Part shown: positions 7,451-26,016 of the stretch, one piece after another
Numbering within the stretch: the first letter of the stretch is position 1
Layout: the number at the start of each line of letters is the position of its first letter
Origin: a virus
Taxonomy: Duplodnaviria; Heunggongvirae; Uroviricota; Caudoviricetes
Reading direction: 5' to 3' (one strand)
Virus record (IMG/VR): IMGVR_UViG_2630968705_000016
DNA: 26,472 nt
The notes under the pieces: generated by a model
Told to the model about the DNA's origin: nothing
Seen by the model: the letters and a program-made list of their open reading frames with translations, nothing else
Databases searched by the model: none
Translations under genes and position numbers: made by a program

Positions 7451-7512
7451 TACGGTCAGATGGGGGTACTTATGGGGGTATTTGCTGTTCGGTTTAGTGG
7501 AGGTACCCCCAA

Positions 7513-9154: not shown

Positions 9155-9358
9155 ATGGCTAATTACAATTCATTAATTCGTCTCTCTGAAGTTCAAAGGC
9201 GAACTGGTTATAGCAAAGCATGGATTTATCGTCTTATTAGTCAGGGGAGGTTCCCTAAACAGGTAAAAATTGGAAGTCGGGCAATTGCTTTTGTTGAGTC
9301 TGAAATAGATGAATGGATTGAGAAGTGTATATTAGAATCTAGAGACGAGGTGGCCTGA
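9155..9358 (+). CDS. alpA: AlpA-family transcriptional regulator / excisionase-like protein
   Basis: 67 aa; IRLSEVQRRTGYSKAWIYRLISQGRFPKQVKIG...ESEIDEWI matches the AlpA/Vis HTH pattern. Confidence 0.85.
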   Translation: MANYNSLIRLSEVQRRTGYSKAWIYRLISQGRFPKQVKIGSRAIAFVESEIDEWIEKCILESRDEVA

Positions 9359-9789: not shown

Positions 9790-9801
9790 CGGAGACTGAA
9801 A

Positions 9802-10635: not shown

Positions 10636-10807
10636 GCCGACAGGAACACCACAACCTCAAAAACGCTACAAAGATGCCCACGGAGCACTCGTTACTGTCG
10701 AAAGCGTGTCTCACAACCGAGTGACGTTTTATCGCGACGGGTATCAATCGCCATGCGTACAACCGCTGGCGCGTTTCATGAAGGAGTTCGCGGAGGTTAA
10801 CCAATGA
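10628..10807 (+). CDS. Small hypothetical protein (59 aa), possibly DUF4222-like
   Basis: ATG at 10628 overlaps the upstream stop (ATGTTTAA). Sequence MFKPTGTPQPQKRYKDAHGALVTVESVSHNRVTFYRDGYQSPCVQPLARFMKEFAEV. Confidence 0.45.
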   Translation: MFKPTGTPQPQKRYKDAHGALVTVESVSHNRVTFYRDGYQSPCVQPLARFMKEFAEVNQ

Positions 10808-11241
10808 TACCCATCCAGAAGAAGACATTTTCACTGGCTGGTATGTCGCCAAAATCCAGAAATATGACGGCAAAGTCAGGCATTAATACAGCAGATACAA
10901 GCAAAGTTTATCATTTGCTGGTGGCCGGAACGGATGCCTTAACCATACCAGAAATCTCGGGCGATGATATTAGCCTTGAGAAGGTCAGCGGCTGCGCCAG
11001 AAAATTTCTGGTCGTAGATGATGTCTTCCGCTCGTGTAGTGACTCCACAAAAACATTCGTCCACGCGCGTGACGTTAACGAAATGAGCGCGATGTACTGT
11101 GCTTCTGGTTCTTCCAATAGTGAGTTTTCGGAGTCCATAAAAAAGAGCTTGCCGTTATGCGGCAACACGGTTTATGGTTATAAGGCACCTCATAAAACGG
11201 GTGCCGGGTTTCGCAGCCCGGAAATGTACGAGGCGACACAT

Positions 11242-11263
11242 GACGCGCCGAGCGTCTTTTTTT
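11242..11263 (+). terminator. Rho-independent terminator-like hairpin plus T7 run
   Basis: GACGC-GCCGA-GCGTC hairpin (11242-11256) followed by TTTTTTT (11257-11263). Lies inside the annotated 355-aa ORF 10804-11871. Confidence 0.5.
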
Positions 11264-11465
11264 GTGCCGTTAGCCAGACTCACACTTTTTTCAGTGATGT
11301 GGTTATAATCCGCGTCGCTTGCAAAATTATGGTGGGCTGGACAGGGCAGCCGAAAGGCTGGCCGGTTTCCTTGTACGCCGGTACTGCGAACTCTGTTCAG
11401 TCCACCACCAGCGAGTTTCGCAGCTCCGGTGGTGGGAAGAATTCCCAGTACAAGGAGGCTGCCAC

Positions 11466-11660
11466 ATGCTGGCTACTACCCCTACCCAAAAACCGCAATT
11501 TATCTGGATTATCGCCGCAGTTCGCCGCGATTGCCCGACAATTACCGCCAAAATTCATCATATTGCTGCCGAGTCTGAACGCGATGCTCGCCGTTCTCTG
11601 GTGCGCGATCACGTCTGCTTTTTTGCTGGTCGTATCCGCATGGAGGTGGCACATGATTAA
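11466..11660 (+). CDS. Small hypothetical protein (64 aa)
   Basis: ATG preceded by AAGGAGG RBS; codon usage (ctg, gcc, cgc) is much more gene-like than the overlapping frame of the long ORF. MLATTPTQKPQFIWIIAAVRRDCPTITAKIHH... Confidence 0.55.
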   Translation: MLATTPTQKPQFIWIIAAVRRDCPTITAKIHHIAAESERDARRSLVRDHVCFFAGRIRMEVAHD

Positions 11661-11871
11661 AACCTACGATGTGCATATGGATCCCCTCGAACGCACAAGC
11701 CAGATCATCACACTGACAGAAGTGATTAACGACATTCTGGTGAGCAACTCTCCCTCACGAGACGAAAGACTGAAGGCGTTACTCGCGATATTGGATCTCG
11801 CCGTTCGTGACGTTCATTTCCTGCTGGAAGGTGGCGAAATGCCAGGAAAAACGGGGGCAACCAATGAATAA
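11655..11871 (+). CDS. Small hypothetical protein (72 aa)
   Basis: Internal ATG of the long ORF with GGAGGTGG RBS; overlaps the upstream stop (ATGATTAA). MIKTYDVHMDPLERTSQIITLTEVINDIL... Confidence 0.5.
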
Positions 11872-12058
11872 CTCAATTAATGCCCCTCGACTTACGTCCG
11901 CACTTCAATTAATCGAGCAAGCAGCGGCTGTCCTGGTTGCTGTCAGTCTTTCGGCTGAAGAAATGGACGCTGCTGATGTCGTGGATGCGATTAAAGCGTG
12001 CTCATCTTTGGTTAACGATGCTCGTGCAGAGCTGGTAATTCTTGGTGGTGAAAAATGA
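11864..12058 (+). CDS. Small hypothetical protein (64 aa)
   Basis: ATG at 11864 overlapping the upstream stop; MNNSINAPRLTSALQLIEQAAAVLVAV... The track ORF begins further upstream at 11807. Confidence 0.5.
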   Translation: MNNSINAPRLTSALQLIEQAAAVLVAVSLSAEEMDAADVVDAIKACSSLVNDARAELVILGGEK

Positions 12059-12318
12059 ATATCAACTTAATTTATCGTCATCCGTGTGAGCTGGAAATTG
12101 AATCATTGCTGAGCCGTGAAGAGCCATATCCAGACACATTCACTCTTGCAGATCGCACGACTGAACGGCTTACCAGGGCGCGCACAGGTCTGGTTCATGT
12201 GATGAATGAGATTCTTCCATCGGTGGGAGGGGAACAGGCGACAGTAATCACTAGCTGGCTACAAAAAGTTACCTCTCTGATAGATATCAGTTTAATCGAT
12301 GCGGAGAGTGCGAAATGA
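12055..12318 (+). CDS. Small hypothetical protein (87 aa)
   Basis: Start overlaps upstream stop (ATGA); part of a coupled run of small genes. Confidence 0.55.
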   Translation: MNINLIYRHPCELEIESLLSREEPYPDTFTLADRTTERLTRARTGLVHVMNEILPSVGGEQATVITSWLQKVTSLIDISLIDAESAK

Positions 12319-12536
12319 CCAACATCCAGCTCATTGAAGCACAATGTCGCATCGAACAGGTTCAGACTGTTTTAGGGTTCTGGCTTGAAGGGGCCAGCCC
12401 CAGCAACAGAGACAAGTTAATGATTGGCGCGGTTATGTCACTGCTCAATGGCGTACCAGAAGCTATTCAGGAAGCAGACGAATTGTTGGGCAAATATGAG
12501 TTACAGAATCATTCAGGCGAGGCGAAACATGAATAA
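12315..12536 (+). CDS. Small hypothetical protein (73 aa)
   Basis: ATGA overlap with the upstream gene; same operon. Confidence 0.55.
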   Translation: MTNIQLIEAQCRIEQVQTVLGFWLEGASPSNRDKLMIGAVMSLLNGVPEAIQEADELLGKYELQNHSGEAKHE

Positions 12537-13131
12537 TTTCTTAACTTTCCATGCAGAAGCAACGCCTGACGGCGTAAACATCATGTACCGCAGCAACGAT
12601 GGCATGACAGAACGCGTTGAGGCCGTCTCATATATTGATGCCGTAAATCGTCTGGATGCCGGGGATTATGACGATAAACCAGATGAAGGTATGTCAATAC
12701 ATCTCGCTATAGCCGATGGCGGCAACCAGGGATATTTCGATTACACATCACAGCATAACGTCATTATGTGGAGATGGCTGATCGCAACAGTATTCATGCT
12801 GGAAATGAGAGAGGAAAACGGCACTGTCAGCATCATTGATGATACTGGCAACCCTTCCGAAGTGGCTGTTTATTCCAACGGCATCGTCGCCATGCCGCTG
12901 TATCCAGTAGCAGAGCGCCTCGCTATGGCAAACAACATTGAGGGCGCGATGATAGAACGTTTTGGCATCGAGTCTGGCACAGAACGCGCCATCATTTTCT
13001 ACAGAGCCATGATGGATGTGGAACAAGGAGCACTGACTCCATTTGGTCGTGAAACGCTTGCTGAACTTCACAACAGCTTTATAGCTGAACTGAATGAAAA
13101 CGGCATGCCAGCGGAACCAGTGACGCACTGA
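12526..13131 (+). CDS. Hypothetical protein (201 aa)
   Basis: ATG at 12526 overlapping the upstream stop (ATGAATAA). The track ORF begins upstream at 12424, but that would overlap the previous gene out of frame. Confidence 0.6.
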   Translation, partial: NMNNFLTFHAEATPDGVNIMYRSNDGMTERVEAVSYIDAVNRLDAGDYDDKPDEGMSIHLAIADGGNQGYFDYTSQHNVIMWRWLIATVFMLEMREENGTVSIIDDTGNPSEVAVYSNGIVAMPLYPVAERLAMANNIEGAMIERFGIESGTERAIIFYRAMMDVEQGALTPFGRETLAELHNSFIAELNENGMPAEPVTH

Positions 13132-13141
13132 GGATGGAACC

Positions 13142-13483
13142 ATGATTACTAAAAATTTCCGACTGAATGCGCTGGCAAATAAGTATGCGTCGGCACTGTA
13201 TAACCACATTACCTCCACCAGCGGCGGGGACTATTTCATGGTTGATGCGGACGGCGAGGCCGTCCGTGTGGAAATCGTCAATGGAGTAAAAGGCGTTCGC
13301 AGCCTGATCGATAGCTACACACTGGCAGCCATGAAAGTGTTCTACCCGCAGTGGGAAACCGTGGGGATCGAGCTTCTTGATCGTTGCGTCACTAAGGACG
13401 GATTGACTGACGTCGGGCGTGAGATATGGCAAAGCATGGTTAATGACATGGGCGCAACTGTAGCGGGAGGTTCTCATGCGTGA
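13142..13483 (+). CDS. Hypothetical protein (113 aa)
   Basis: ORF with GAGGATGG context upstream; the stop overlaps the next start. Confidence 0.6.
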   Translation: MITKNFRLNALANKYASALYNHITSTSGGDYFMVDADGEAVRVEIVNGVKGVRSLIDSYTLAAMKVFYPQWETVGIELLDRCVTKDGLTDVGREIWQSMVNDMGATVAGGSHA

Positions 13484-13847
13484 AAATGCAGAAATGGCGC
13501 TTAGCTCCGCAATCGGAGAGCAGGTGGCAAAGATTGCTGGTGCTGTGTGGATTCATAACCTTCATTCTACTGGTGAAGAGAAAATGGCAATTCAGACGCC
13601 AGAGGGACGCATCATTACTACATCTCTGAAGCCGTCAGATGTTTGTGATCTGATTTGCGCATTCATGTACCCAGCAATGAGGACTGCCCACGGCGATAAG
13701 TGGAAACTTGCGACAACCGCTGAATTTGATATGTGGCTAAACAATGATGGCATGCTGACTGATTACGGAATAACCAAGTGGCAGATGCTGGTTAGCCATA
13801 TCGCAAACGCTATAGACCACGTGGGGTACGGTGATGCGAAACATTGA
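13476..13847 (+). CDS. Hypothetical protein (123 aa)
   Basis: ORF with GGGAGG RBS upstream; 3' end overlaps the primase start. Confidence 0.6.
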   Translation: MRENAEMALSSAIGEQVAKIAGAVWIHNLHSTGEEKMAIQTPEGRIITTSLKPSDVCDLICAFMYPAMRTAHGDKWKLATTAEFDMWLNNDGMLTDYGITKWQMLVSHIANAIDHVGYGDAKH

Positions 13848-16590
13848 TCTTATCCGTCAGGTTATCAGTGCGTCTGAAAACAACTGGCCTCATGTGCTGG
13901 GCTGCCTGAACATAAATGTCCCTGACTCTCCGCGCCGTCATGCTCCCTGCCCTGCATGTGGGGGCAAAGATCGATTCCGGTTCGATGACAACGGGCGCGG
14001 TAGCTTCATCTGTAATCAGTGCGGCGCTGGTGATGGGCTGGATTTAATTAAACGCGTAAATAACTGCGACACAACAGAGGCGGCGCTTCTTGCCGCTGAT
14101 GTTCTGGGTATTGATTACCGGACAACGGAAACACCAGAAGCCACCAGCCAGAAACGGGAACAACTGGAAACCGAGCGCCAGCGACGCGAACAGGAGCGCC
14201 TGAAAAGGGCAGAGAAGGACGAACAACAAAGACGGGATACGTTTTCCCGTCAGTTTGATGACATGCGCAGAAAGGCTGTAAACGGCAAATCTGATTATCT
14301 GGTTGCGAAAGTGGTAGGTGATTTTACATTCCCCGTGTTGCCCGATGGATCTCTGTTGCTGGCGCTGGTGGATAAATCCGGCGCAGTCACAGCAGCACAG
14401 ACTATTACCTCACATGGTGAAAAAAGACTCCTGACAGGTTCAGCAAAGCGGGGGGCATATCACGCCATAAACGCACCAGAAACAACACAGAGCATCTTAA
14501 TCGCAGAAGGGCTGGCAACGGCATTATCTGCCCATTTAATTCGTCCAGAGGCGCTGACAGTGGCGGCGATTGATGCCGGGAACCTGTTATATGTCGCCCA
14601 GGTACTGCGGGATAAATATCCTTCAGCACAAATCATCATTGCTGCGGATAACGACCACAGCGAAGGAAGACAAAACACGGGGAGAATAGCAGCAGAAAAA
14701 GCAGCTTTATCTGTTTCTGGATGGGTGGCATTACCCCCGACAGATCACAAAGCAGACTGGAATGATTACCACCAAAAACACGGCATTAAATGCGCCACAG
14801 AAGCGTTCAATAAGTCAATGTACCAACCACAGGGTAATGGCGTGAAACAGGAGCCACAGACCATTGAGGGAAGCGATTTTAAGGTTATGGATACCGACCC
14901 ACTGAAACCAAGAATAGAAAGCCGCGAGGATGGTATTTATTGGGTATCTCCGAGAGCTGACAGCCAGAGTGGAGAAATCATCAATAACGAAAGCTGGTTA
15001 TGTTCTCCGTTAAGCGTTATCGGTACTGGCAGAGACGATAAAGACCAGTATCTCATTCTTCGCTGGCTGTCGTTTGGTTCTGAAACGCCGACAACCGCTG
15101 CCATTCCACTGGCTGATATTGGTGAACGTGAAGGATGGCGCACACTTAAAGCTGGTGGGGTAAATGTCACGACCAAAAGCAGCCTCAGAGCAATACTGGC
15201 AGACTGGCTACAACGCAGTGGCTCTCGTGAATTGTGGCGTGTTGCTCATGCCACTGGCTGGCAATGCGGAGCGTACATCATGCCTGATGGGGAAATCATC
15301 GGAACACCTGAAAATCCTGTGCTGTTCAGCGGGAGAAGCTCAGCCGCAGCCGGATATACCGTCTCAGGGAGCGCGAAAAGCTGGCGTGATAACGTGGCGC
15401 GTCTGGCCTTTGGTAACTATTCAATGATGACCGGGATCGGCGCAGCACTGGCAGCGCCATTGATTGGGCTGGTGGGCGCTGACGGGTTCGGCATTCATTT
15501 CTATGAGCAGTCGAGCGCAGGTAAGACCACCACGGCAAACGTGGCGAGCAGCTTATACGGCAACCCTGATTTACTGCGGCTGACGTGGTACGGAACCGCG
15601 CTGGGGCTGGCAAATGAGGCCGCCGCCCACAATGACGGACTAATGCCGCTTGATGAAGTTGGTCAGGGCGCTGATCCTGTCAGCGTTTCACAGTCTGCCT
15701 ATGCGTTATTTAACGGTGTAGGGAAACTGCAAGGCGCTAAAGATGGTGGAAACCGGGATCTAAAACGTTGGCGTACAGTGGCAATCAGCACCGGAGAAAT
15801 GGATTTAGAAACATTTATCGCTACTTCCGGGCGAAAAACCAAAGCCGGGCAACTGGTGCGACTGCTGAATATTCCGTTGAGTAAAGCAGTACGCTTTCAC
15901 GATTACCAGAACGGAAAACAGCACGCAGACGCACTGAAAGACGCTTACCAGCATCACCACGGCGCGTCCGGGCGTGAGTGGATTAAATGGCTGGCAGACC
16001 ACCAGCAACAGGCTATTAAAACCGTTCGTGATTGCGAAAGCAGATGGAGAAGCCTGATCCCATCCGATTATGGTGAGCAGGTTCACCGTGTAGCCGCGCG
16101 ATTTGCCATTCTGGAGGCCGCATTGTTGTTAGGCGAGGTTGTAACAGGCTGGGATGCTCAGACATGCCGTGATGCGATACAGCACAGCTATAACGCATGG
16201 TTGCGTGAGTTCGGCACAGGTAACAAAGAGCATCAGCAGATTATTGAACAAACGGAGGCATTTCTTAATGCCTATGGGCTTAGCCGTTTTGCACCATTTT
16301 CATACAGCCCGGCAGATTTGCCCATCAAAGATTTAGCCGGATACCGTCAGCGTGGAGAACATGACGAAAGCCCAATGATTTTCTACACATTCCCGGCCAC
16401 ATTTGAAAAGGAGATCGCATGTGGTTTCAACGCAAAACAGTTTGCTGAAGTGTTGAAAAAAGCCGGGATGCTAACCCCACCAAACAGCGGTCGTGGATAC
16501 CAAAGAAAATCACCACGTATTCAGGGACGACAAATAAACGTTTATGTACTCAATTACCAGCCAGGAGATTATAACTCATCTGAAGAATGA
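13831..16590 (+). CDS. Primase-helicase (P4 alpha-like: zinc ribbon + Toprim primase + P-loop helicase)
   Basis: 919 aa. CPACGG...FICNQCG zinc-binding motif; Toprim-like AEGLATA and IIIAADNDHSEG (DxD); Walker A SSAGKTTT and Walker B-like LMPLDEV. Start could be the GTG at 13831 or the ATG at 13834. Confidence 0.9.
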   Translation: MMRNIDLIRQVISASENNWPHVLGCLNINVPDSPRRHAPCPACGGKDRFRFDDNGRGSFICNQCGAGDGLDLIKRVNNCDTTEAALLAADVLGIDYRTTETPEATSQKREQLETERQRREQERLKRAEKDEQQRRDTFSRQFDDMRRKAVNGKSDYLVAKVVGDFTFPVLPDGSLLLALVDKSGAVTAAQTITSHGEKRLLTGSAKRGAYHAINAPETTQSILIAEGLATALSAHLIRPEALTVAAIDAGNLLYVAQVLRDKYPSAQIIIAADNDHSEGRQNTGRIAAEKAALSVSGWVALPPTDHKADWNDYHQKHGIKCATEAFNKSMYQPQGNGVKQEPQTIEGSDFKVMDTDPLKPRIESREDGIYWVSPRADSQSGEIINNESWLCSPLSVIGTGRDDKDQYLILRWLSFGSETPTTAAIPLADIGEREGWRTLKAGGVNVTTKSSLRAILADWLQRSGSRELWRVAHATGWQCGAYIMPDGEIIGTPENPVLFSGRSSAAAGYTVSGSAKSWRDNVARLAFGNYSMMTGIGAALAAPLIGLVGADGFGIHFYEQSSAGKTTTANVASSLYGNPDLLRLTWYGTALGLANEAAAHNDGLMPLDEVGQGADPVSVSQSAYALFNGVGKLQGAKDGGNRDLKRWRTVAISTGEMDLETFIATSGRKTKAGQLVRLLNIPLSKAVRFHDYQNGKQHADALKDAYQHHHGASGREWIKWLADHQQQAIKTVRDCESRWRSLIPSDYGEQVHRVAARFAILEAALLLGEVVTGWDAQTCRDAIQHSYNAWLREFGTGNKEHQQIIEQTEAFLNAYGLSRFAPFSYSPADLPIKDLAGYRQRGEHDESPMIFYTFPATFEKEIACGFNAKQFAEVLKKAGMLTPPNSGRGYQRKSPRIQGRQINVYVLNYQPGDYNSSEE

Positions 16591-16615
16591 GCTTCTTCAT
16601 GTGCGTAGAAAAGGT

Positions 16616-16726
16616 GTTGGTTCAGTTGGTTCAGTTGGTTCAATTTGTAAAGAGTATTGTTTTATAATGATTTTATTCTTTTTATTGAACCAACACTGAA
16701 CCAACAACACGGTATTTTGAACCAAC
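16616..16726. repeat. Iteron cluster 1 (putative replication origin)
   Basis: Three perfect tandem GTTGGTTCA 9-mers (16616-16642), an AT-rich spacer, then three TGAACCAAC inverted copies (16686-16694, 16697-16705, 16718-16726). Begins 26 bp after the primase stop. Confidence 0.75.
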
Positions 16727-17046
16727 ACAATGTGACTGAATTGATGCGCACAACACCTGGCTGGCATCAGAGAGTGTTTTACGAGACTTTCGTAAAATCC
16801 TGTGTACAAGGGCGTGACGTTTTTGAAAGTGAGCACTACGAAATTTTCGTAGTTCAAAAAACAGCCTCTGAGAAGTTGTTATGCCTGTTCAGCAAACCAT
16901 CCGCATAGCTGATCGCGAATCAAATTACCAATGGAGCCAGAAGCAAGGGCAGAACTGAAAAGCGCCTGCCGTGAAGAGTAATGCGACACCATAAATATAG
17001 TTTTTAGAGTCCATAAAAAACCTGTCAAAACCTGACACACAGAACG

Positions 17047-17080
17047 ATGCCACCAGCTACTGAGCGGTGGCATTTTTTTG
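17047..17080 (+). terminator. Rho-independent terminator
   Basis: Perfect 8-bp stem ATGCCACC/GGTGGCAT with an 11-nt loop, followed by TTTTTTT (17074-17080). Confidence 0.7.
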
Positions 17081-17174
17081 TGCTATTTGTTTCATATTTT
17101 GCAATTACGATGATGAATATTGCGATTTGTGAAACTATAATAACTGTTGTTTTATACAGTTCTAAGGGGGCGTT

Positions 17175-17336
17175 ATGGCTATTTCAGTAAAGCCGGTATT
17201 GATAAGTGAGAAGCAAATGGAAGCGATAAAGAAAATTCAGGAAGAGCAGCGTAAAAAATCAGGAATTGGAGTAGCGCCAACTCTGCATGAAATTGCACGA
17301 GGGTTAATAGATAAGGCGCTGGCAGGCTGTATGTGA
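17175..17336 (+). CDS. Small hypothetical protein (53 aa), possible DNA-binding regulator
   Basis: Strong RBS AAGGGGG 5 nt upstream of ATG; MAISVKPVLISEKQMEAIKKIQEEQRKK... Not on the ORF track because it is under 60 aa. Confidence 0.5.
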   Translation: MAISVKPVLISEKQMEAIKKIQEEQRKKSGIGVAPTLHEIARGLIDKALAGCM

Positions 17337-17352
17337 AAATGGATGGCATCGC

Positions 17353-17814
17353 ATGGAACTAAAATTTATTGATAACCCTGTGCGATTACAGGCCTTTCTT
17401 AACGAGCCAGGCAATACCGAAAATATTGTTGAGCCGGGGCACACGTACTACATCAAGCCTGATGCGGTATATCTCGGCATCTACGAAGGATTAGTGCTGG
17501 CTGGCGTTCATGAAGTGCGTAACTTCTGGCATAGCGTTGTTGAATGCCATGCGGTGTACGACCCCGGATTCCGTGGTGAATATGCACTGCAAGGGCATCG
17601 ATTATTCTGCAAATGGCTTCTCGAAAACTCACCATTCCTTAACAGCATTACCATGGTTCCTGACACCACCAAATACGGACGGGCAATTATCCGTTTGCTT
17701 GGCGCTACCCGTGTTGGTCACCTTGATGATGCTTATATCAGATGTGGTAAACCCGTCGGCGTAACGCTTTATCAGTTAACTCGGCAACAATATAAGGAAT
17801 TCAGCGAATGTTAA
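17353..17814 (+). CDS. Hypothetical protein (153 aa), first gene of the ejection-like cassette
   Basis: ORF coupled to the downstream gene (ATGTTAA overlap); no domain recognised. Confidence 0.7.
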   Translation: MELKFIDNPVRLQAFLNEPGNTENIVEPGHTYYIKPDAVYLGIYEGLVLAGVHEVRNFWHSVVECHAVYDPGFRGEYALQGHRLFCKWLLENSPFLNSITMVPDTTKYGRAIIRLLGATRVGHLDDAYIRCGKPVGVTLYQLTRQQYKEFSEC

Positions 17815-18485
17815 TTACCCACATAGCTCATAAACATCTCAATCGTGCCGTATACGAAAAAGGCGGTGATGGTGGTGCCTCTAAAGCTCAGGCGAAGGCC
17901 CAGCAGCAGGCAATTGATTTGCAGCGCGAGCAGTGGAATACGGTGATGAATAATCTCAAGCCGTATGCAGAAGTCGGATTGCCTGCTTTACAACAACTAC
18001 AAGGACTGATGACTCTGGAAGGGCAGAATAAAGCCGCGAATGATTTCTTTGGTTCTGGTTTATATAAAACACAGGCAGATCAGGCCCGTTATCAGAACCT
18101 TGTCTCAGCAGAAGCTACCGGGGGGCTTGGCTCAACAGCTACCAGTAACCAGTTATCTTCCATTGCGCCCATGCTTTATAACAATTGGCTCAGTGGGCAA
18201 ATGCAAAATTATGGAAACCTGCTAAATGTCGGGATGAATGCGGCATCAGGGCAGGCAACGGCAGGGCAAAACTACGCCAATAATACCGGACAACTCTTGC
18301 AGGGGCTTGGCGCTATTCGTGCAGGTCAGGCGCAGCAGCCATCCAGTCTTGCGCGTGGTATTGGTGGGGCAGCATCAGGCGCTTTAGCGGGTGCGCAACT
18401 TGGTTCCGTTGTTCCTGGAATAGGAACTGCGGCCGGCGCTATTGGTGGTGGGCTTATTGGTCTTGTTGGGGGGCTTGGATTCTAA
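17808..18485 (+). CDS. Hypothetical protein with glycine-zipper-like C-terminus (225 aa), internal-virion/ejection-like
   Basis: Q/A/N/G-rich; C-terminal GIGGAASGALAGAQLGSVVPGIGTAAGAIGGGLIGLVGGLGF suggests a membrane-inserting glycine zipper. Coupled to flanking genes. Confidence 0.75.
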   Translation: MLITHIAHKHLNRAVYEKGGDGGASKAQAKAQQQAIDLQREQWNTVMNNLKPYAEVGLPALQQLQGLMTLEGQNKAANDFFGSGLYKTQADQARYQNLVSAEATGGLGSTATSNQLSSIAPMLYNNWLSGQMQNYGNLLNVGMNAASGQATAGQNYANNTGQLLQGLGAIRAGQAQQPSSLARGIGGAASGALAGAQLGSVVPGIGTAAGAIGGGLIGLVGGLGF

Positions 18486-19804
18486 TGGCGACATGGCAAC
18501 TTGGCGGGCTGCCTAGCATGGCACCGCAAAATGATAATGCTCCTCGTTCTTCCGTTCCTCAGCCTGTGCAGTATCAGCAGCAGCCAAACGTAGGTTTAAT
18601 GGCGCTACAGGGGCTAAGAGGCGTTGCTGAGATTAATCAGCAGGCGCAAATTTCCCAGCAGTTAAAAGAATATCAGGCACGGTTGGGTAGTGCGGTAGCT
18701 AATAATGATCGTGTTGGCGTGCAGAAGTTAATGGCCCAGTATCCCCAGTTTATGGCTGATTCTCAAAAACAGATGGGATTCATTGATGCTGAGCAAAATC
18801 GACAGACCGCTGACGCTGCCATGAATCTGCGTCTTGCGTCACAAACTGGAGATCCACTGACCATGCAGAAGGCCATTCAGCAGGCAAATCCAGTATTACA
18901 GCGATTTGGTCTTCCTGCTGAAGAGGTTTATCAGTCTTGGCAGAATGACCCACAGGAATTCAACAGAATCACTGACCTCATCCACCTCCATGCTGATCCA
19001 AATAGTTACTTTAGTGTTCAAGAGAAGCAGCAAGGGCAGAGCATTGCACAGCAGAACGCAGATACATCCGCATATAATGCTCAGGTTAATGCGGAACAGG
19101 GTAATCGACGTCTCGATATGGAGCAGTTCAAAGTCCTATCCGATAACCAACTACGCACGAGAGAAATGGTTCTGAAAGCACGACTTGGACGTGCTCAAAA
19201 TGACATCGAGAGAGACAAGCTCAATGCTGAACTGAGCAAGATACAGCAGGCGAAAGTGGAGAAGATGAACGATAAAATTAATACTGTTGCAGGTAACATC
19301 GACTCCTTGAACTCTGCGCTTGAAGTGGGTCATGAACTGGCGGGAATTGTAGGGAAACATCCTTCGGCCGTTACCCGCTCGCAGAACTATAACCCCCTGA
19401 CGCTGGGGTTTGGATTCCTTCCTGATGTAGCAGAAGACACACGAAGCCTACGCGCCAAAGCTGATGAATACAACCTAAAGGTTATTCTGCCTAGCCTCAA
19501 AGGGACTTTTGGCTCTAACCCAACCGAAGGGGAAAGGGCTGCCCTTATGCAATCTCAAAATGGCATTAAGTCAGCAACCAGCAATGAGGCATTTTTGCGA
19601 GAGTTGAATAAAGCGCAGGACGTAATTATTCGAATGCAGAAACGACAGATTGCCGGGCTCGGTATTCCTGTAACCAAATCTAAGGACGAAGAAACTGATA
19701 CCAAAATGCTGTTGCAGGATCCTTCACTGGTTAAGGATTATGTGACCGCACATGGCTATCTGCCGGAAAGTTACTATCAGGCAAAACTTAAGGGATGGCA
19801 ATGA
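18485..19804 (+). CDS. Hypothetical Q-rich protein (439 aa), internal-virion/ejection-like
   Basis: Start overlaps the upstream stop (TAATG); low-complexity Q/N/A-rich composition typical of phage internal core proteins. Confidence 0.8.
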   Translation: MATWQLGGLPSMAPQNDNAPRSSVPQPVQYQQQPNVGLMALQGLRGVAEINQQAQISQQLKEYQARLGSAVANNDRVGVQKLMAQYPQFMADSQKQMGFIDAEQNRQTADAAMNLRLASQTGDPLTMQKAIQQANPVLQRFGLPAEEVYQSWQNDPQEFNRITDLIHLHADPNSYFSVQEKQQGQSIAQQNADTSAYNAQVNAEQGNRRLDMEQFKVLSDNQLRTREMVLKARLGRAQNDIERDKLNAELSKIQQAKVEKMNDKINTVAGNIDSLNSALEVGHELAGIVGKHPSAVTRSQNYNPLTLGFGFLPDVAEDTRSLRAKADEYNLKVILPSLKGTFGSNPTEGERAALMQSQNGIKSATSNEAFLRELNKAQDVIIRMQKRQIAGLGIPVTKSKDEETDTKMLLQDPSLVKDYVTAHGYLPESYYQAKLKGWQ

Positions 19805-22521
19805 TGGCACAACTGACAGAAAAACAGAAAGCCTATTCCCGTCATCTCGATGAAAAATATGGTTTCCCATCAGGGACGATGGAAACATTAGTTGGCAATG
19901 AATCTAGTGGTAACGGAAGTGCCGAGTCACCGAAAGGAGCTAGAGGATTTGCTCAACTGATGCCCTCAGTAATGAGTGATGCTGGTTATCGTGGAACAGA
20001 TCCGCGCTCACTGCCATTTGAAAAGCAAATGGATATCGCAGCAAACCATCTCAATAAAGGAATGAAGCGATTTGGTGATATAGGTATGGCATTGGCTGGG
20101 TATAATTCTGGCTATGCTCGTATTAATGCCGTCAGAAACGGTAAATCTACACTGCCAGATGAAACGGCTAATTACGTAAGTAAATTTGCAGATGCCGGAA
20201 TAATCCCTGATGACAGTGAAATCTTGCAGTTTGCACAAACCAGTCAACATCGCAATCTTCAGCAGCCTGACTACTCAGAGCTTGATAAAGAAATCTCTCA
20301 GGTGGGAGATATTTCTGCATGGGAAGCAAAACGTCAGCAATTTAAGAACATAGAAGCAGGACTACCAACAGCCAGTTCATGGGAGCAGAAAAGAGCTCAG
20401 TTTCTCGCCGATGAAAATGCCGGGGAACCGCAGCAGCAAGTAGCCAAGTCTAACCTTAATCCTGAGATGGAATATCTTTCGCCAGGACTGAAAGCTGCGC
20501 CAGAGCAGATGGCCAGAGGGATTGCTAATATACCGTTTGATGTAATGGACGCAGGCGTGGGGGTAGTCAATGCGGCGCAATCAGCCGGAGCATGGGCAGC
20601 TCAGAAGCTTGGTGTGGGTGATGGCACATACACGCCCATATCACCTGTCTTTCGCCCAGTAGACCAACCTACAGATCCATACGCGCAGGCTGGTGAGCAG
20701 CTAGCACCTTACCTTATTACAGGATTAGGTGTAGGAAAGGCAGCTACCGCAGCTTCTTCAGTTGCCAACGCTCCACGTGCTGAACGTGCGGCCACAAAGG
20801 TGGCTAGTATGTTGGCAGAAAACCTGCCAGGTACATTGGTGAACGCCCAAAAGAACGGGCAGATCAGCCCAGAAGACCTAGCAAAAGAGACAGGTATTGG
20901 CCTAGCAGGATCGCTAGGAGCACGCGCTTTAATAAAGAGCGGACAGACAGCCAGTGACGTAATGCGAGATGTATTGCGGAGTAATACAAATCAATCAGGC
21001 CATGTGTTAGGGGCAGCAAATACTCTGGAAACCGCCAATGATGTATCGAAAGCAGCGCGTTCTGCCGTAGGCCGAGAGCATATCGCATCGCAGGCATCAA
21101 ACGTCAGAGATGATGTCGCTAAGGCGGCGAAAATCACTGGTATTAATATCAACACCCTGACGCCTGGAATGCGCTCAGGTAGTCGTGGAATTGCCCAAGC
21201 AGAAGGTGTTCTGGCATCAACTCCTGGGAATGTTCAGGATGCTCACCTTACGGCCTTCAATGAAATATCCTCAAAGTTGAATAAGCAGTTGTCTGATTTC
21301 GGTGCTGAGTCTGGAAGCGCATCAGAAAAAAGCGCAGCAATTAAAGAGCGCATCATCGCGAGCCTCAGTGATATGAAAACAGCAGAGAATATGGCATGGG
21401 CAGAACTGCGAAGCACGATGCCACGCGAAAGGATGAAAATGAGTAATGGGATGGCTGTCGTCCAAGCAGAAAAAGCAGCCAATGTTCCACTCAGCCCGGA
21501 GATGAAACAGTTTCAGGCTGCCAACAACCAAGGTGGCGGCATAACCTTCGACGGGATGAAGGCATGGCGTGCTAAGTTTGCTGATGCTGAACAAGCAAAC
21601 ACCCGGGCAGGTAAGGCCAATGCCGCCCGGATTGCCGGAGAAATGCGCAGAGCTATCACTGATGACATGCGCATCATGGCTGAAAAAGGAAACTTCCTCA
21701 CAGAATGGCAGAAAGCTAACGATCTCTCTAAAAGTTACATTATCGCCAAACAAAATGCCGAATCTGTTTTTGGTCGAGATCTCGCATCAGACGCTATGGT
21801 AAGAAAAGGTGCCGATACGCTTAAGGCATCCGCAAACACTGGAACGGGAGCTTTTCACCGTCTTATCTCCGCGCTGCCGGAAGCAGAACGCCAACCTGCA
21901 ATAGCATCTATTCTTCAGCATGCTGTGGCGCAGGGAGAGAAGGGAGGAATCGGTGAAGAGTCAGGTATCCAGTATTTTGCCAAGCTCATGACCCAGCAGA
22001 ATGTAAACGCCATCAGTCGTCATGCGCCAGATCTCGGTAGAATGATGAAAGAGTTCGGTGTACTCGCTAAAGCCAGTACCAGACCGCAGCGATACGTAGA
22101 GCGCACGGGAAGAACAACTGAGGCTCTCAAAACGCTCGATTCAGGCCTTCCAAAGATCGTCGGCGTGATTATGAACGGTGTTCAACAGTCAGGTGCGATC
22201 GCTGGAGGCTTTGGCGGTGGTGTAATTGGTTCGATTAGTGGTTTGGTTGCTGGTGGCGCGCTAAGAAATGCTGTGGCTAAGATTGGGGCGACAAGAAGTG
22301 GTCGATATGCGATAGAGAAAGCCGTTCAGGAAGCTACAAAAGCAGTGCGCGCAGGGGCATCACCAGCAGCGATCGCCGCAGCAGAGAAACGATTTTCGGC
22401 CAATAAAATTGCCATGAAAGCAATTCGTGATGCCGTTGGGGCTGAAGAATTCGTGAAACTGACAAGGGCCGGGATTGTAGCTACCCTCAGTGGCATGAAA
22501 GATGTTAGCGAATGGGAATAG
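19795..22521 (+). CDS. Large protein with N-terminal lytic transglycosylase (SLT) domain (908 aa), T7 gp16-like architecture
   Basis: N-terminal motifs ESSGN (catalytic Glu context), GFAQLMP and AGYNSGYA match SLT family signatures. The remainder is long and A/G/Q/S-rich with a glycine-rich segment (GAIAGGFGGGVIGSISGLVAGG) near the C-terminus. Confidence 0.88.
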   Translation: MAMMAQLTEKQKAYSRHLDEKYGFPSGTMETLVGNESSGNGSAESPKGARGFAQLMPSVMSDAGYRGTDPRSLPFEKQMDIAANHLNKGMKRFGDIGMALAGYNSGYARINAVRNGKSTLPDETANYVSKFADAGIIPDDSEILQFAQTSQHRNLQQPDYSELDKEISQVGDISAWEAKRQQFKNIEAGLPTASSWEQKRAQFLADENAGEPQQQVAKSNLNPEMEYLSPGLKAAPEQMARGIANIPFDVMDAGVGVVNAAQSAGAWAAQKLGVGDGTYTPISPVFRPVDQPTDPYAQAGEQLAPYLITGLGVGKAATAASSVANAPRAERAATKVASMLAENLPGTLVNAQKNGQISPEDLAKETGIGLAGSLGARALIKSGQTASDVMRDVLRSNTNQSGHVLGAANTLETANDVSKAARSAVGREHIASQASNVRDDVAKAAKITGININTLTPGMRSGSRGIAQAEGVLASTPGNVQDAHLTAFNEISSKLNKQLSDFGAESGSASEKSAAIKERIIASLSDMKTAENMAWAELRSTMPRERMKMSNGMAVVQAEKAANVPLSPEMKQFQAANNQGGGITFDGMKAWRAKFADAEQANTRAGKANAARIAGEMRRAITDDMRIMAEKGNFLTEWQKANDLSKSYIIAKQNAESVFGRDLASDAMVRKGADTLKASANTGTGAFHRLISALPEAERQPAIASILQHAVAQGEKGGIGEESGIQYFAKLMTQQNVNAISRHAPDLGRMMKEFGVLAKASTRPQRYVERTGRTTEALKTLDSGLPKIVGVIMNGVQQSGAIAGGFGGGVIGSISGLVAGGALRNAVAKIGATRSGRYAIEKAVQEATKAVRAGASPAAIAAAEKRFSANKIAMKAIRDAVGAEEFVKLTRAGIVATLSGMKDVSEWE

Positions 22522-22671
22522 ACGCTCTAACTAACAAAACCATAATAGCCAAGGACGGCATACTGATATTGAGCCAACTATCAAAATTCCATATCACATT
22601 ACGAGCCTGTGGCTTACATTCGCTTACAGTGATGATAATTTATAACCACGCAATTCTTAGGTGAGATTATC

Positions 22672-23370
22672 ATGATTAAAAATCTTCTTTTAATATTATC
22701 CCTGTCATTATTGGCTGGATGCGTACAAAAACCGTTAGTAACGGTCAATGCTTTATCTTCCGGGCAATCTGTCGGTAAGAAGTTCTTGATCATCCCCGCA
22801 AGCCAAGAACTTTGGAACACCAAACAGATTGAATACACTCAAATAGCTACGGTAGTAGCCGCCAGTTTATCAAGCCAAGGATATACACAAGTTAAAGATG
22901 AAAAATTGGCTGACCAGGTAATTCTCTTGAACTTTTTGAGAAGTGGGGCCATTTCAAATACTCGTAATGTAACCATCCCAATATACGGGCAAACTGGTGT
23001 GAGCTCAGCAACAACGTACGGAAACTCGAACACCACGTTCAATAGTTATGGTGGTGGCTACGGTACAGCTAATACCACTGGAACGGCAACAACAGTTTAT
23101 ACGCCTACTTATGGAATTACTGGCGCGTATAACACAACTGTGACGGACACGTTCTACGGCGCAGGGGTGATACTCCAGTCGTTTGATGCCAAGGCTTATC
23201 TCAATAATCGGCAGATTAATATGTTATGGAAAGTTGGTAGCTCAGTCGTCTCGCAACAGTCTGATGGAATTGCTGATTACAAAGGGTTGGCGAGAATAGC
23301 CGCTAGCTATGCCGGGAAAAATACAGAAGGTGATATAACTTTTAATGTTGACCCTAAAGCACCAAATTAA
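22672..23370 (+). CDS. Putative lipoprotein (232 aa)
   Basis: Signal peptide with lipobox LLAG|C; AGGTGAG RBS; T/G/N/Y-rich central region; lower GC than neighbours. Confidence 0.8.
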   Translation: MIKNLLLILSLSLLAGCVQKPLVTVNALSSGQSVGKKFLIIPASQELWNTKQIEYTQIATVVAASLSSQGYTQVKDEKLADQVILLNFLRSGAISNTRNVTIPIYGQTGVSSATTYGNSNTTFNSYGGGYGTANTTGTATTVYTPTYGITGAYNTTVTDTFYGAGVILQSFDAKAYLNNRQINMLWKVGSSVVSQQSDGIADYKGLARIAASYAGKNTEGDITFNVDPKAPN

Positions 23371-23377
23371 CTAATAA

Positions 23378-23427
23378 GCCCGGTACGCCGGGCATTCATG
23401 CCCCTATTATTCATGAATCGCTTTTTC
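23378..23427 (+). terminator. Terminator-like tandem hairpins downstream of the lipoprotein gene
   Basis: GCCCGG-TACG-CCGGGC hairpin (23378-23393), then ATTCATG...CATGAAT hairpin (23394-23418), followed by CGCTTTTTC. Confidence 0.4.
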
Positions 23428-23584
23428 TGGAAGGTATGCGACAAACGTTAAGTGACATTGCCTACACATTCGGGGCTCAAATCCGCTCCCAGTTGATGGG
23501 GCCGTTACAGTACGCGCATATCCGCTTTATGTGAAACAGGAAGATTTTTCTGATATCACTGCCACAGCAAAACACCAATTTCGA

Positions 23585-23600
23585 GACAAGTACGCGCGCG
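23585..23600. repeat. GACAAGTACGCGCGCG motif, copy 1
   Basis: Exact 16-mer with an alternating (CG) tract; a degenerate copy (GACCAGTACGCACACG) follows at about 23638-23653. Confidence 0.6.
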
Positions 23601-23870
23601 AGGGGTATCAGTTGCAAAATTTTTTGCAACTGCGTCCGACCAGTACGCACACGATGGCGGGGGATACCATAAAAGTGTTCTCTACATGAGACAGAGTGGT
23701 GGTGATGTGTTGATTATCGGCGTATATGCGCACAGGACGCGCTATGACAATGTTTTATGCGGGTACACCAATCACATGTATCTGACGTGATAAATCGCGT
23801 TACATGACATCTCATGTTGTGCTGGTGGTTATCACGACGTTCTGAATCTGGCCTTTGCCTGATATTTTGC

Positions 23871-23886
23871 GACAAGTACGCGCGCG
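23871..23886. repeat. GACAAGTACGCGCGCG motif, copy 2
   Basis: Exact 16-mer in the context ATTTTGCGACAAGTACGCGCGCGTAGCATC. Confidence 0.6.
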
Positions 23887-23914
23887 TAGCATCGACAGCA
23901 TACACATTGGATAT

Positions 23915-24136
23915 TCATTTTGTGACCAATGCGATAAGTAGCGGGATAAGAATTGATAAAATCAACAGGCCGATGATCCACTTTTGATTTTCACTGGCCT
24001 TATCTCTATTTTCATCAATCTTATCAATAATTCGACGCTCCAGGCCGTGCATATCACCGCGAATGGCAATCATCTCATTGCGAACATCCGAGAAGTGGTT
24101 GGCTTGATGTTCAATGTGTGGCGTTCTGCCTTTCAT
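23915..24136 (-). CDS. Small putative membrane protein (73 aa)
   Basis: AGGTGAGGA RBS on the minus strand; charged N-terminal region and C-terminal hydrophobic helix WIIGLLILSILIPLLIALV. Confidence 0.5.
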   Translation of the reverse strand: MKGRTPHIEHQANHFSDVRNEMIAIRGDMHGLERRIIDKIDENRDKASENQKWIIGLLILSILIPLLIALVTK

Positions 24137-24215
24137 TCCTGATCCTCACCTATCGTCACCACCTGCTGGTGTATAAAGGTATTGGCCCAAGCAGCTTTCC
24201 AATGGGCACTCATGT

Positions 24216-24671
24216 TTATACGCTGACCTTACAATCAATCACCGCTTTTAACTTTTCAGCATTGCTTCCCTGACGCTTCCACGCGCTGTAAATATCTTTA
24301 TCCCACGCTTTACCAGCTTTTGTTTGATAGCCTGCTTCATTGATCCGTTCAGCTATCACACGCCCATTATCAAATCCCTGTCGGATGGTATCGGCAATGA
24401 TCTTTATAACTGCCGTTTCGTTATATGGCTTTGGTGGGATGTTCGGCTTTCCGGCAATAAGCGACGCAGCAGCTTTTTCCATGCGCTCCACCAGCCCAAG
24501 CATTCGTGAATCAATAGACTTTTCCGGCTGTCCCAGCTTCATGCGAATCGCATCAACAAGCCAGGAGGTTTTATCCCCTCCAGAAGCGAGAACAGACCGA
24601 TTAAACTCATCCTGCAATTCAGATGGGATGCGGAACGCGACCAGATTAGATTTGCTCATTGCAAAGACCAT
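24216..24671 (-). CDS. Putative DNA-binding regulatory protein (RHH-like N-terminus), 147-151 aa
   Basis: N-terminus SNLVAFRIPSELQDEFNRSV...SWLVDAIRMKL has a beta-strand/helix/helix pattern; start is ATG at 24671 or 24659. Transcribed divergently from the PerC-like gene, with iteron cluster 2 between them. Confidence 0.65.
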   Translation of the reverse strand: MVFAMSKSNLVAFRIPSELQDEFNRSVLASGGDKTSWLVDAIRMKLGQPEKSIDSRMLGLVERMEKAAASLIAGKPNIPPKPYNETAVIKIIADTIRQGFDNGRVIAERINEAGYQTKAGKAWDKDIYSAWKRQGSNAEKLKAVIDCKVSV

Positions 24672-24773
24672 ATCAGTGAGTAATATCCATACAGTATATC
24701 ACTGTATAACACTGTTATACGCTCAAATATCAGCCAGAAAATAACGGGCCAATCACAAAGCTATCGCTGTGTT

Positions 24774-24894
24774 GTTGGTTCAGAGCTGGGCTGTGTTGGT
24801 TCAAAATGAGTTGATGTTGGTTCAATATTTTAGAAAAAACATAATAAAAACAACAATCTTTACAAATTGAACCAACTGAACCAACTGAACCAAC
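24774..24894. repeat. Iteron cluster 2 (inverted copy of cluster 1)
   Basis: GTTGGTTCA at 24774-24782, 24795-24803 and 24816-24824; AT-rich spacer; three tandem TGAACCAAC at 24868-24894. Its reverse complement aligns with cluster 1, with about 45 bp identical at the tandem end. Confidence 0.75.
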
Positions 24895-24930
24895 ACCTTT
24901 TTGCTTATCTATATAATCTGAGAGGCAGAA

Positions 24931-25212
24931 ATGATAAGGGACAGGAAAGCTGAAGAGCTGGAGTCAAAAGGGCTATACCGGAGAGCTGCCGCACGATGGA
25001 TGGAAGTCATGCTGTTATGCAGCGAGGACGATGATCGGGAATGGATAAAGCGCCGCCGTGAAACGTGTCTGGAGAACGTGAAGCGCCCGCCCGTGAAGGT
25101 TGAGGAATTTGGCGACCTGCATAAAGCTGTTACCGAAACGCAACACCGCATGGGGATAGCGCAACCGAACGGTAACGCCTTCCGGTTAAATGGCGGTAAG
25201 AGGCAAAGGTAG
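24931..25212 (+). CDS. PerC-family transcriptional activator-like protein (93 aa)
   Basis: GAGAGG RBS; MIRDRKAEELESKGLYRRAAARWMEVM... matches my recollection of the PerC/Pch N-terminal signature. Confidence 0.7.
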   Translation: MIRDRKAEELESKGLYRRAAARWMEVMLLCSEDDDREWIKRRRETCLENVKRPPVKVEEFGDLHKAVTETQHRMGIAQPNGNAFRLNGGKRQR

Positions 25213-25260
25213 ACCACCAGAGGGAAATCATCCTCTGGCTGGCGGTTTCTGGTATTTCGG

Positions 25261-25278
25261 GACAAGTACGCGCGCGCG
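25261..25278. repeat. GACAAGTACGCGCGCG motif, copy 3 (one extra CG unit)
   Basis: GACAAGTACGCGCGCGCG in the context TATTTCGGGACAAGTACGCGCGCGCGTAGCACC, sharing about 30 bp of context with copy 2. Confidence 0.6.
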
Positions 25279-25509
25279 TAGCACCCAATCGGTGAGGAAA
25301 TAGCGGCGACCTGAATGGTCAAAATCACAACGCAGCTATCCCCGTAAGCAGCGCTTAACGGAATAGCAGTAACCTGAATCCAGTGGGGAGGGGGTAGTCA
25401 AATCTCTACAGCCCTGACTATCCGGGACTGCCCGCCCCATCGTTTTTTTATACCCGCGAAAAATGAAATTTAATCCGGGCGTGTTTCATCCTTCCAGAGG
25501 GTATGACGT

Positions 25510-25695
25510 ATGACACCACGCGAAATAGCTTTATTGACCACCGCCAAACTGGAGCACGAAGGCCACCAGCTAACCCCGGCAGATCAACGGGAGATAGAAC
25601 GCTCAGTTAATGCCAATATAGCCCGGCGTGACAAATTTCGCGAAATGATGCGATCACCCGCCTACCAGTGGAAGAAGCCTGCGCCGCGCAGGTAG
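25510..25695 (+). CDS. Small hypothetical protein (61 aa)
   Basis: ORF with AGAGGG upstream; basic protein; no domain recognised. Confidence 0.45.
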   Translation: MTPREIALLTTAKLEHEGHQLTPADQREIERSVNANIARRDKFREMMRSPAYQWKKPAPRR

Positions 25696-26016
25696 ATTAC
25701 CTTTATTCACCTTTATATATTCGAACAACAAAACCTCTCGCAGGTCTCGCCAATAAAGGGATATAGCAGTAACTATGACCGCCGAATGGCAAAGCTACGA
25801 TGCAAGTCGCTGGTTTCCAAACTTGAGGTTTCCAGGACGGTTTCAACCAAATTGCGGATTATCAGCCAAACGCACCGGGTATCTTGCGCGGTGGATGGTG
25901 AGCCATCACGCAGAATCTTTAAATGGCATTTTACGATGGGCAATACCCGTGGTTATATGCGATTATTAACGGTAGTGGACAGTTATAGACGAAAACATAC
26001 GGCAGGAGATTGGATA

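Follow-up and report, generated by a model that had tools for sequence, protein, structure and literature searches.

A short CG-rich box that is repeated in the intergenic DNA of a phage-inducible chromosomal island (PICI) of Escherichia coli matches a patch of the small-terminase gene (terS) of Sf6-type phages, and in those genes the patch is constrained at the nucleotide level. The island lies within a 26,472-nt stretch of viral DNA (Caudoviricetes; IMG/VR record IMGVR_UViG_2630968705_000016), which we analyzed at its full length and call the window. A sequence-only reading of this DNA had pointed out the repeat and suggested that it was the binding site of a regulator or a signal for site-specific recombination. 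We tentatively propose that the copies are multi-copy mimics of the pac boxes of a helper phage, and that they form the packaging signal by which the island would be loaded into helper capsids. This seems to us quite possible, if somewhat short of probable.

The window is identical to the genome of E. coli APEC E19025, and it spans crl-phoE-proBA, a tRNA-Thr gene, and an island of ~20 kb. We identified the island's proteins from the RefSeq annotation and from scans against Pfam and PHROGs. The island is a PICI of the EcCIMP1 type: it is at tRNA-Thr between proA and yagU, it encodes an integrase, AlpA, a primase, and PerC, and it is without capsid or terminase genes. The EcCIMP1 locus of E. coli MP1 is 98.9% identical to positions 7302-23895 of the window (16.6 kb), and copies 1-3 of the repeat are identical. 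EcCIMP1 is located at thrW and is induced and transduced by the P22-like phage vB_EcoP_Kapi1 (PMC11773190). According to the same paper, no capsid or terminase genes could be identified in EcCIMP1, the element is excised only upon induction of Kapi1, Kapi1 transduces EcCIMP1 and not a chromosomal marker, and the packaging mechanism could not be characterized (PMC11773190). As far as term searches of its text show, the paper does not mention the repeats. In the window's island, RefSeq annotates no terminase gene, and a search of the window with six TerS queries (tblastn) found no Sf6-type TerS, only motif matches of 8-12 residues.

The repeats and their distribution

The 16-mer GACAAGTACGCGCGCG occurs exactly at 23585-23600 and at 23871-23886, and a third copy at 25261-25278 is GACAAGTACGCGCGCG plus one CG unit, just as the sequence-only reading had reported. 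It had also described a degenerate copy after copy 1, and this is GACCAGTACGCACACG at 23638-23653, with 3 mismatches. Scanning for AGTACGC turned up a fifth, partial copy (CAGTACGCGCATA) at 23508. Every motif copy in the window is on the + strand. Overall, the window has 4 matches to the motif versus 0.10 expected; four or more were seen in 0 of 100 dinucleotide shuffles. The copies and the conserved module that holds most of them are arranged as follows:

23477..23895, + strand, 419 bp: conserved module free of open reading frames (ORFs), with copies 0, 1, 1', and 2; an island flanked by two variable satellite regions
23508..23523, + strand: copy 0, partial, CAGTACGCGCATATCC, from the AGTACGC scan
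23579..23600, + strand: copy 1, TTTCGA GACAAGTACGCGCGCG
23610..23631, no strand: perfect palindrome AGTTGCAAAA-TT-TTTTGCAACT, in the interval from copy 1 to copy 1'
23638..23653, + strand: copy 1', degenerate, GACCAGTACGCACACG; starts 53 bp past copy 1, or about five helical turns
23865..23891, + strand: copy 2, TTTTGC GACAAGTACGCGCGCG TAGCA; left edge of a cargo hotspot
25255..25283, + strand: copy 3, TTTCGG GACAAGTACGCGCGCGCG TAGCA

The repeat unit is longer than the 16-mer, at about 28-33 nt (TCTGrTATTTyGnGACAAGTACGCGCGCG(CG)TAGCA). As first noted, copies 2 and 3 have ~30 nt in common, including TAGCA, and the TTTyGn prefix is retained in copies 1, 2, and 3. Beyond the perfect 16-mer and this prefix, the flanks of these paralogous copies are only ~60% alike. 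The palindrome between copies 1 and 1' keeps its stem in relatives, and its center varies (TT, AG, AT, or a single A). All of the copies lie outside of annotated genes in the RefSeq annotation of the identical genome, which agrees with the earlier description of them as intergenic; short ORFs in our ORF list do overlap motif copies. We considered a 52-amino-acid ORF across copy 1 as a hidden gene, and a 1-nt indel in the palindrome of one relative (L254) and a K/Q change argue against coding. Copy 3 is 48 nt past the stop codon of PerC, downstream of a hairpin, and 230 nt ahead of a gene for a 61-amino-acid protein. In other elements, the motif directly adjoins the homolog of this 61-amino-acid gene.

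The 419-bp module is present in 545 of 5,426 complete E. coli genomes, with ~96% identity, and its flanks differ between elements. Homology with relatives begins at 23477 and stops at 23892-23895. Among the matches listed, nearly all have no annotated feature beneath them. A 47-nt query around copy 3, which cannot detect bare 16-mers that lack matching context, had matches in 567 of the 5,426 genomes (~10%), at a median of 2 places per genome; among the matches listed, none has an annotated feature beneath it. In every locus that we inspected, the motif with its context lies within the EcCIMP1-type family. (A scan for the bare 16-mer across all species was dominated by chance matches in GC-rich genomes and is uninformative about enterobacteria.) The module had no match in 50,697 phage records, and the 47-mer found nothing relevant in them, where a short match to terS would be below the reach of BLAST at that database size. 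Rfam had no match in 23300-25800 beyond chance level. The sequence-only reading had said that its proposal would fall if the motif were ubiquitous in the chromosome or part of a known repeat family. At the sensitivity of the 47-nt query, the motif is not spread across the chromosome and is not a known chromosomal repeat family (REP/BIME, ERIC, etc.).

Within the family, the CG tract is (CG)4 at copies 1 and 2 in all of the ~20 loci that we read. Copy 3 has (CG)5, with (CG)4 in a minority of genomes, and the (CG)4/(CG)5 difference was confirmed in one locus (L456). Copy 1' is the most variable copy, with 3 of its 16 columns varying. Some smaller relatives are without both the ejection-protein block and the 419-bp module (L375, L228, and L259), and in these the Icd/Ash region has a motif-like copy, or two. 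No such copy is in that region in the window and L250, which both have the module. In other words, within the satellite superfamily, the presence of the motif is kept while its position shifts. As had been suggested, the repeat seems to be a recognition sequence that acts in cis, and not a product of chance.

Three side observations concern the surroundings of the copies. Copy 3 is in the reading frame of PerC: past the TAG stop codon, 22 sense codons follow (25210-25281), ending in ...FLVFRDKYARA and then TAG. This is probably a coincidence. A Chi sequence (GCTGGTGG) is at 23821-23828, 42 nt upstream of copy 2; relatives have ACTGGTGG instead, so Chi is not conserved and its presence here is probably incidental. 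Finally, the left edge of the module falls at GGTCGGGATTTCAAATCCG, a sequence that is slightly similar to the T-arm of a tRNA (window 23460-23490; L248 12840-12870; L258 4990-5020). Upstream of this edge, the genes differ by element, with either a lipoprotein or a minus-strand ORF of 131-139 amino acids. The edge may be an old insertion or attachment scar.

A codon-locked patch in small-terminase genes

We found the match to terS by scanning IMG/VR with ATTTYGNGACMAGTACGC. The scan returned satellites and also the coding sequence of small-terminase genes, in which the motif reads F-R-D-(K/Q)-Y-A. More precisely, the 18-nt core of the repeat, TTTyGnGACmAGTACGCG, corresponds to the FRD(K/Q)YA codons of Sf6-type terS. 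In Sf6, nt 163-183 of gene 1 are GAT TTT CGC GAC AAG TAC GCG, and terS of Kapi1 (18872-18892) reads GAT TTT CGC GAC AAG TAC GCG as well. (The TerS of Kapi1 has the sequence of Sf6 gp1 plus a two-residue N-terminal extension.) GACAAGTACGCG occurs just once in Kapi1, at 18881, and once in Sf6, at 172, in both cases inside terS.

The likeness extends a little beyond the core. In the FRDKYAR frame, copy 1 and its upstream context read AKHQ-FRDKYAR, versus AKHEDFRDKYAK in TerS of Sf6 and Kapi1; the other two contexts read WL...F-DKYAR and W....FRDKYARA, and the three compare to RWLAKHEDFRDKYAKA. The (CG)n tail corresponds to terS variants that encode YARA (TAC GCG CGC GCG). Position 4 of copy 1 is A or C among relatives, and it is the sole variable core position in the satellite copies; the same A/C difference distinguishes K from Q codons among terS genes. 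We considered the module as a decayed terS gene and rejected this, as each copy resembles TerS over no more than 8-12 residues.

The scan of IMG/VR forced a match at the DNA level. For the analysis of codons, we collected members of the TerS family anew, selecting them by protein patterns alone (L376-L455), and this sample is unbiased as to codons. We considered 26 distinct terS genes whose GC content at third codon positions was at most 0.65, with codons elsewhere in the same genes as the background. The preferred codons at the motif were:

Phe, codon TTT: 21/26 at the motif, 29% elsewhere
Asp, codon GAC: 22/23 at the motif, 48% elsewhere
Tyr, codon TAC: 26/26 at the motif, 38% elsewhere
Ala, codon GCG: 22/26 at the motif, 19% elsewhere

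These biases at FRD(Q/K)YA are highly significant (P = 1e-6 to 1e-12, binomial test). The Arg codon inside the patch varies freely, with at least 4 different codons in use. The patch is codon-locked across lineages whose proteins are only 42-58% identical to the query. Evidently, terS is under nucleotide-level constraint over TTT CGN GAC MAR TAC GCG, which is the span that the satellite copies have in common with it. Other invariant Tyr, Asp, and Ala residues of TerS have mixed codons (TAC 12/25; GAC 5/26 and 9/25). Because the codons at the motif are nearly fixed and those of other invariant residues are not, the pattern points to a cis-acting DNA element within terS.

What the repeats might do

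If the copies are pac-box mimics, then rings of the helper's TerS would bind the boxes on replicated concatemers of the island, TerL would cut near the boxes, and helper heads would be filled with island DNA (at ~20 kb, the island is roughly half a headful). The boxes would in this way have a role in transduction. As a side effect, the combination of terminase-induced breaks and direct repeats would make the flanks prone to recombination, and the cargo hotspot beside copy 2 would fit this. The module and Sf6-terS-like DNA are found together in 104 genomes, versus 64.8 expected, so that such DNA is more frequent in genomes with the module than in others (19% vs. 11%), a comparison that is uncorrected for clonal structure. 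A bolder version of the proposal takes TTT-CGN-GAC-MAR-TAC-GCG, the 18-nt patch itself, to be the pac box that TerS recognizes throughout a large family of Sf6-gp1-like small terminases. In this version, EcCIMP1-type islands, which encode neither a packaging protein nor an adaptor, would hijack P22-like helpers just by carrying several copies of the box, and cutting there would also drive the turnover of cargo in the defense hotspot. This version might be correct, and we hold it with greater reserve.

The proposal can be compared to several known systems. The pac site of P22 is 22 bp inside gene 3 (PMC8022706, PMC9611059), and the TerS of Sf6 recognizes a specific pac site (PMC7672466). In headful phages such as P22 and Sf6, packaging begins at a pac site within the phage's own terS. 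As with pac sites inside terS (P22 gene 3 and Sf6 gene 1), the candidate element here is short and asymmetric DNA within the coding sequence of terS, and the island's motif equals a codon-locked patch of Sf6-type terS that is single-copy in Sf6 and Kapi1. The sequence of P22's pac is unrelated, however, and the island's element is intergenic, multi-copy, and extended by (CG)n.

Some satellites carry a packaging site of their helper instead of a terminase: P4 (with the cos site of P2), the cos-carrying islands of the SaPIbov5 type, and the E. coli PICIs that combine cos with Rpp. Like these, the island has no terS or terL of its own and would rely on a cis site, here a candidate, that the helper recognizes. 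The sites of those satellites are cos, and the PICIs also need Rpp as an adaptor. The island, in contrast, has a helper that packages from pac and no evident adaptor, and its candidate signal consists of repeated 18-nt boxes. Multi-box pac sites are also known, such as the hexamer boxes of P1 and the pacL and pacR boxes of SPP1. These resemble the island in having several short direct repeats across a few hundred bp; in the island, copies 1 and 1' flank a palindrome, and their offset of 53 bp puts them in helical phase. Both the architecture and the sequences are unrelated, though.

Several points weigh against a role in packaging. Within the family, conservation of the motif does not exceed that of the module around it: 1/16, 1/16, and 3/16 of the columns vary, versus 41/421 for the module. 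The genomes behind the co-occurrence of module and terS are not phylogenetically independent. The identity with terS of Kapi1 is just 12-14 contiguous nt, and Kapi1 lacks the CG tail and TAGCA. The reported frequency of EcCIMP1 transduction is extremely low (PMC11773190). The constraint on codons in terS could serve a feature of the mRNA or a recombination patch. The patch is a candidate for pac. Also, a 2013 study by Leavitt and colleagues reportedly placed the pac site of Sf6 in the segment of gene 1 for the DNA-binding domain and argued that site and domain travel together. At the 3' edge of that segment, where it is located, the motif is the same in two divergent haplotypes of the domain, so it fits poorly as a determinant of specificity.

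An alternative is that the copies are handles or footprints of recombination, that is, short "boundary sequences" for the exchange of modules between satellites and P22-like phages, which mark past junctions and have no role in packaging. We consider this unlikely, even though a good deal of the evidence is compatible with it. Cargo of the window's type diverges 9 nt past the CG run of copy 2, but the other types of cargo diverge 45-190 nt past it, and copies 1 and 3 are not at mosaic junctions. We found precise fusions of copies 1 and 1' (L256), 1 and 2 (L258), and 2 and 3 (L460), which speak for recombination at the repeats, as the sequence-only reading had suggested. Each fusion was in a single examined genome (1 of 552 for copies 2 and 3), as any direct repeats would give, and slippage or short-homology deletion between direct repeats would be equally expected to produce them. 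The part of the earlier suggestion that invoked a site-specific signal does not hold up: we rejected the motif as an attachment site of the integrase, as the island's att core (TCCTATTATC, in tRNA-Thr, as given in PMC11773190) is unrelated to it, and the thrW integrase is the only recombinase annotated in the element.

The terS genes have a junction at the motif as well. Across 53 Sf6-type alleles (L294-L373), there are two divergent 5' haplotypes (codons 1-57, the DNA-binding domain) and an identical 3' block, and the alleles change from one to the other just past the Arg codon (CGC or AGA) and before GACAAGTACGCG, or in other words, exactly at the 5' edge of this 12-mer. Furthermore, the Sf6 record annotates boundary sequences (bsq) elsewhere in its genome, and Kapi1 and Sf6 encode annealing proteins of the RecT or Erf type. 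The repeats are similar to the bsq of lambdoid phages in being short conserved stretches at mosaic junctions, including the junction of terS alleles, but bsq are conserved gene ends, single per junction, with no repeated consensus, and most junctions in the satellites are off the motif. Selection for recombinability is weak and would hardly lock four codons across distant lineages of terS, and junctions near the cut site of the terminase are also expected if the motif is pac. Packaging and recombination could both be true of the copies. Cuts made by a terminase promote recombination, and this could explain both the junctions and the deletions near the copies.

It is also improbable, in our view, that the copies are operators, with a protein of the island or the helper, such as AlpA, PerC, or an Arc/Mnt-type repressor, or else a host factor binding the TACGCGCGCGTA palindrome and controlling the flanking genes. 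Copies 2 and 3 do contain a perfect 12-14-bp palindrome, TACG(CG)nCGTA, and a related palindrome (ACGCGCGT) is in the Ash region of the window, but copy 1 and the versions in terS are not palindromic. The copies are at the ends of transcription units and, in relatives, upstream of + strand cargo genes; however, the position of the motif relative to genes is not conserved across the superfamily, and 23300-25800 has no consensus promoter of the sigma-70 type on either strand (0 vs. 4.3 expected). Terminator-like sites were found in this region, and none are at the copies. The earlier suggestion that the island's ribbon-helix-helix (RHH)-like protein binds the repeat is unlikely, as many family members, EcCIMP1 among them, lack its gene but retain the copies. 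PerC, which was suggested along with it, is not supported as the partner. Nor would an operator explain why the motif is identical to a codon-locked patch of terS.

Another rather doubtful idea, which we rate about as low, is that the copies are neutral relics: decayed fragments of terS from old recombination with a helper, later duplicated, and without function today. Relics would be consistent with the upstream contexts, which are still TerS-like in the FRDKYA frame, and with the lack of excess conservation over the rest of the module. Yet the 16-mer is identical in three paralogous copies whose flanks have drifted to ~60%, 545 genomes retain the ORF-free module, with ~96% identity, amid variable neighbors, motif-like copies recur at other positions in distant relatives, and all copies have a single orientation.

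The sequence-only reading had also drawn attention to the CG tract, which might adopt Z-DNA and vary in length by slippage. That the tract is a contingency locus, which switches conformation or length to vary expression, is very improbable. Purines and pyrimidines do alternate over 12-14 bp, and the predicted variation between isolates is there in part: copy 3 has (CG)5 or (CG)4 depending on the isolate. However, just two lengths were seen, at one copy only, with copies 1 and 2 invariant, and there is no promoter-like site at the copies and no ORF whose spacing or frame the tract would change. Such tracts are probably short for forming Z-DNA in vivo. Z-DNA is not needed to explain the tail. 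It matches codons for YARA (Tyr-Ala-Arg-Ala) in terS variants, and it is accounted for if the copies descend from these codons or imitate them.

The island, its relatives, and its other features

The genes of the island are in this order:

Start: integrase, AlpA-type helix-turn-helix (HTH) protein, AntA/B antirepressor, "Ash" ORF, TOPRIM/DUF927 primase
Middle: homologs of P22 gp14, gp7, gp20, and gp16 (with an SLT domain); lipoprotein; ORF-free stretch with copies 1, 1', and 2
End: small membrane protein and 151-amino-acid RHH-like protein (both on the minus strand), PerC, copy 3, 61-amino-acid gene, Panacea-domain gene

EcCIMP1 has the same location in thrW between proA and yagU and the same gene order from int to the 61-amino-acid gene. 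The two differ in the cargo after copy 2, which is the small membrane protein and the RHH-like protein in the window and alpA_1 in EcCIMP1, and the window adds a Panacea-domain gene after the 61-amino-acid gene. More broadly, the region to the right of copy 2 (23896-24794 in the window) is a hotspot: where the window has these two genes, relatives have Abi, ImmA/IrrE with a partner, an AlpA-like HTH gene, or two hypothetical genes. A second hotspot is past the 61-amino-acid gene (after 25697), with a Panacea-domain gene pair in the window and nothing in relatives. The genes in the hotspots look like defense or toxin-antitoxin cargo of the satellite.

The ejection-protein genes are related to those of phages to varying degrees. 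The gp14-like gene of the window has a segment in common with Kapi1 that is 91% identical, and the satellite's gp20 is only ~26% identical to gp20 proteins of phages. At the gp20/gp16 junction, several other family members (L005, L246, L253, L254, and L258) have a 200-bp patch that is 96% identical to Sf6 11526-11725. The gp14 segment and this patch speak for contact with Sf6-like phages and count in favor of the packaging proposal. A 12-kb relative near yicC/dinD (L375, in NZ_CP026939.2) has int, AlpA, Ant, Icd, primase, SSB, PerC, and the 61-amino-acid gene, and it has no genes for ejection proteins. The block from gp14 to gp16, together with the 419-bp module, is thus an optional insert between primase and PerC. 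A metagenomic contig (IMGVR_UViG_3300045988_004969; L248/L340) joins Sf6-like genes from terL to gp20 with a satellite-type gp16 and the 419-bp module. It may reflect true recombination between helper and satellite, or a chimeric assembly via the 200-bp patch, and we did not use it as evidence.

Two other features of the island are worth describing. Genes for isrK (11185-11262, + strand) and for the C4 antisense RNA (11325-11412, + strand) are inside the ORF that is annotated as an "Ash family protein" (10804-11871), with Rfam scores of 69 and 81 bits. The Pfam match to Ash covers residues 124-232, which is the stretch with these RNA genes, and the "Ash" protein may be a translation of RNA genes, or else the region may be dual-coding. 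A candidate target, the strongest duplex partner of C4 on the + strand outside of the C4 gene itself, begins near 11921 (-47.5 kcal/mol). We also considered the motif copies as antisense targets of C4 or isrK, in the manner of P1 immI or P4 seqA/seqC, and rejected this: across all copies and both strands, the duplexes are at -25 to -31 kcal/mol, versus a mean for the window of -23 (standard deviation 6.6).

The other feature is a set of iterons on both sides of an AT-rich core upstream of PerC (24770-24900), where 3-4 copies of TGTTGGTTCA face three copies of TGAACCAAC. This region is an inverted copy, 87% identical, of the region just past the primase gene (16609-16695). The same iterons follow the motif and the 61-amino-acid gene in unrelated contigs (L275). 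The paired iteron regions, which are reminiscent of the ori/crr pair of P4, are probably the island's replication origin and a second cis site.

The EcCIMP1 family was already published, and carrying the packaging site of a helper is an established strategy for satellites. If our proposal is true, then what is new is a multi-copy, intergenic mimic of a patch within terS of a pac phage, without an adaptor protein. EcCIMP1 is an experimentally validated satellite whose packaging its authors could not explain, and the repeats supply a hypothesis about its cis site that can be tested by mutation. If the pac hypothesis fails, the repeat would still be family-specific and would mark EcCIMP1-type islands. 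If packaging signals are linked to the exchange of cargo, then this would bear on how defense genes move, such as the Abi, ImmA/IrrE, and Panacea-domain genes in the hotspots. Very few headful phages have a known pac site, and such sites are difficult to locate. As a candidate pac box for a large family of terminases, the codon-locked patch of terS can be put to the test, and if it is indeed the pac box, the 18-mer would be a handle for predicting pac sites, pairs of helpers and satellites, and hot spots of transduction in enterobacteria.

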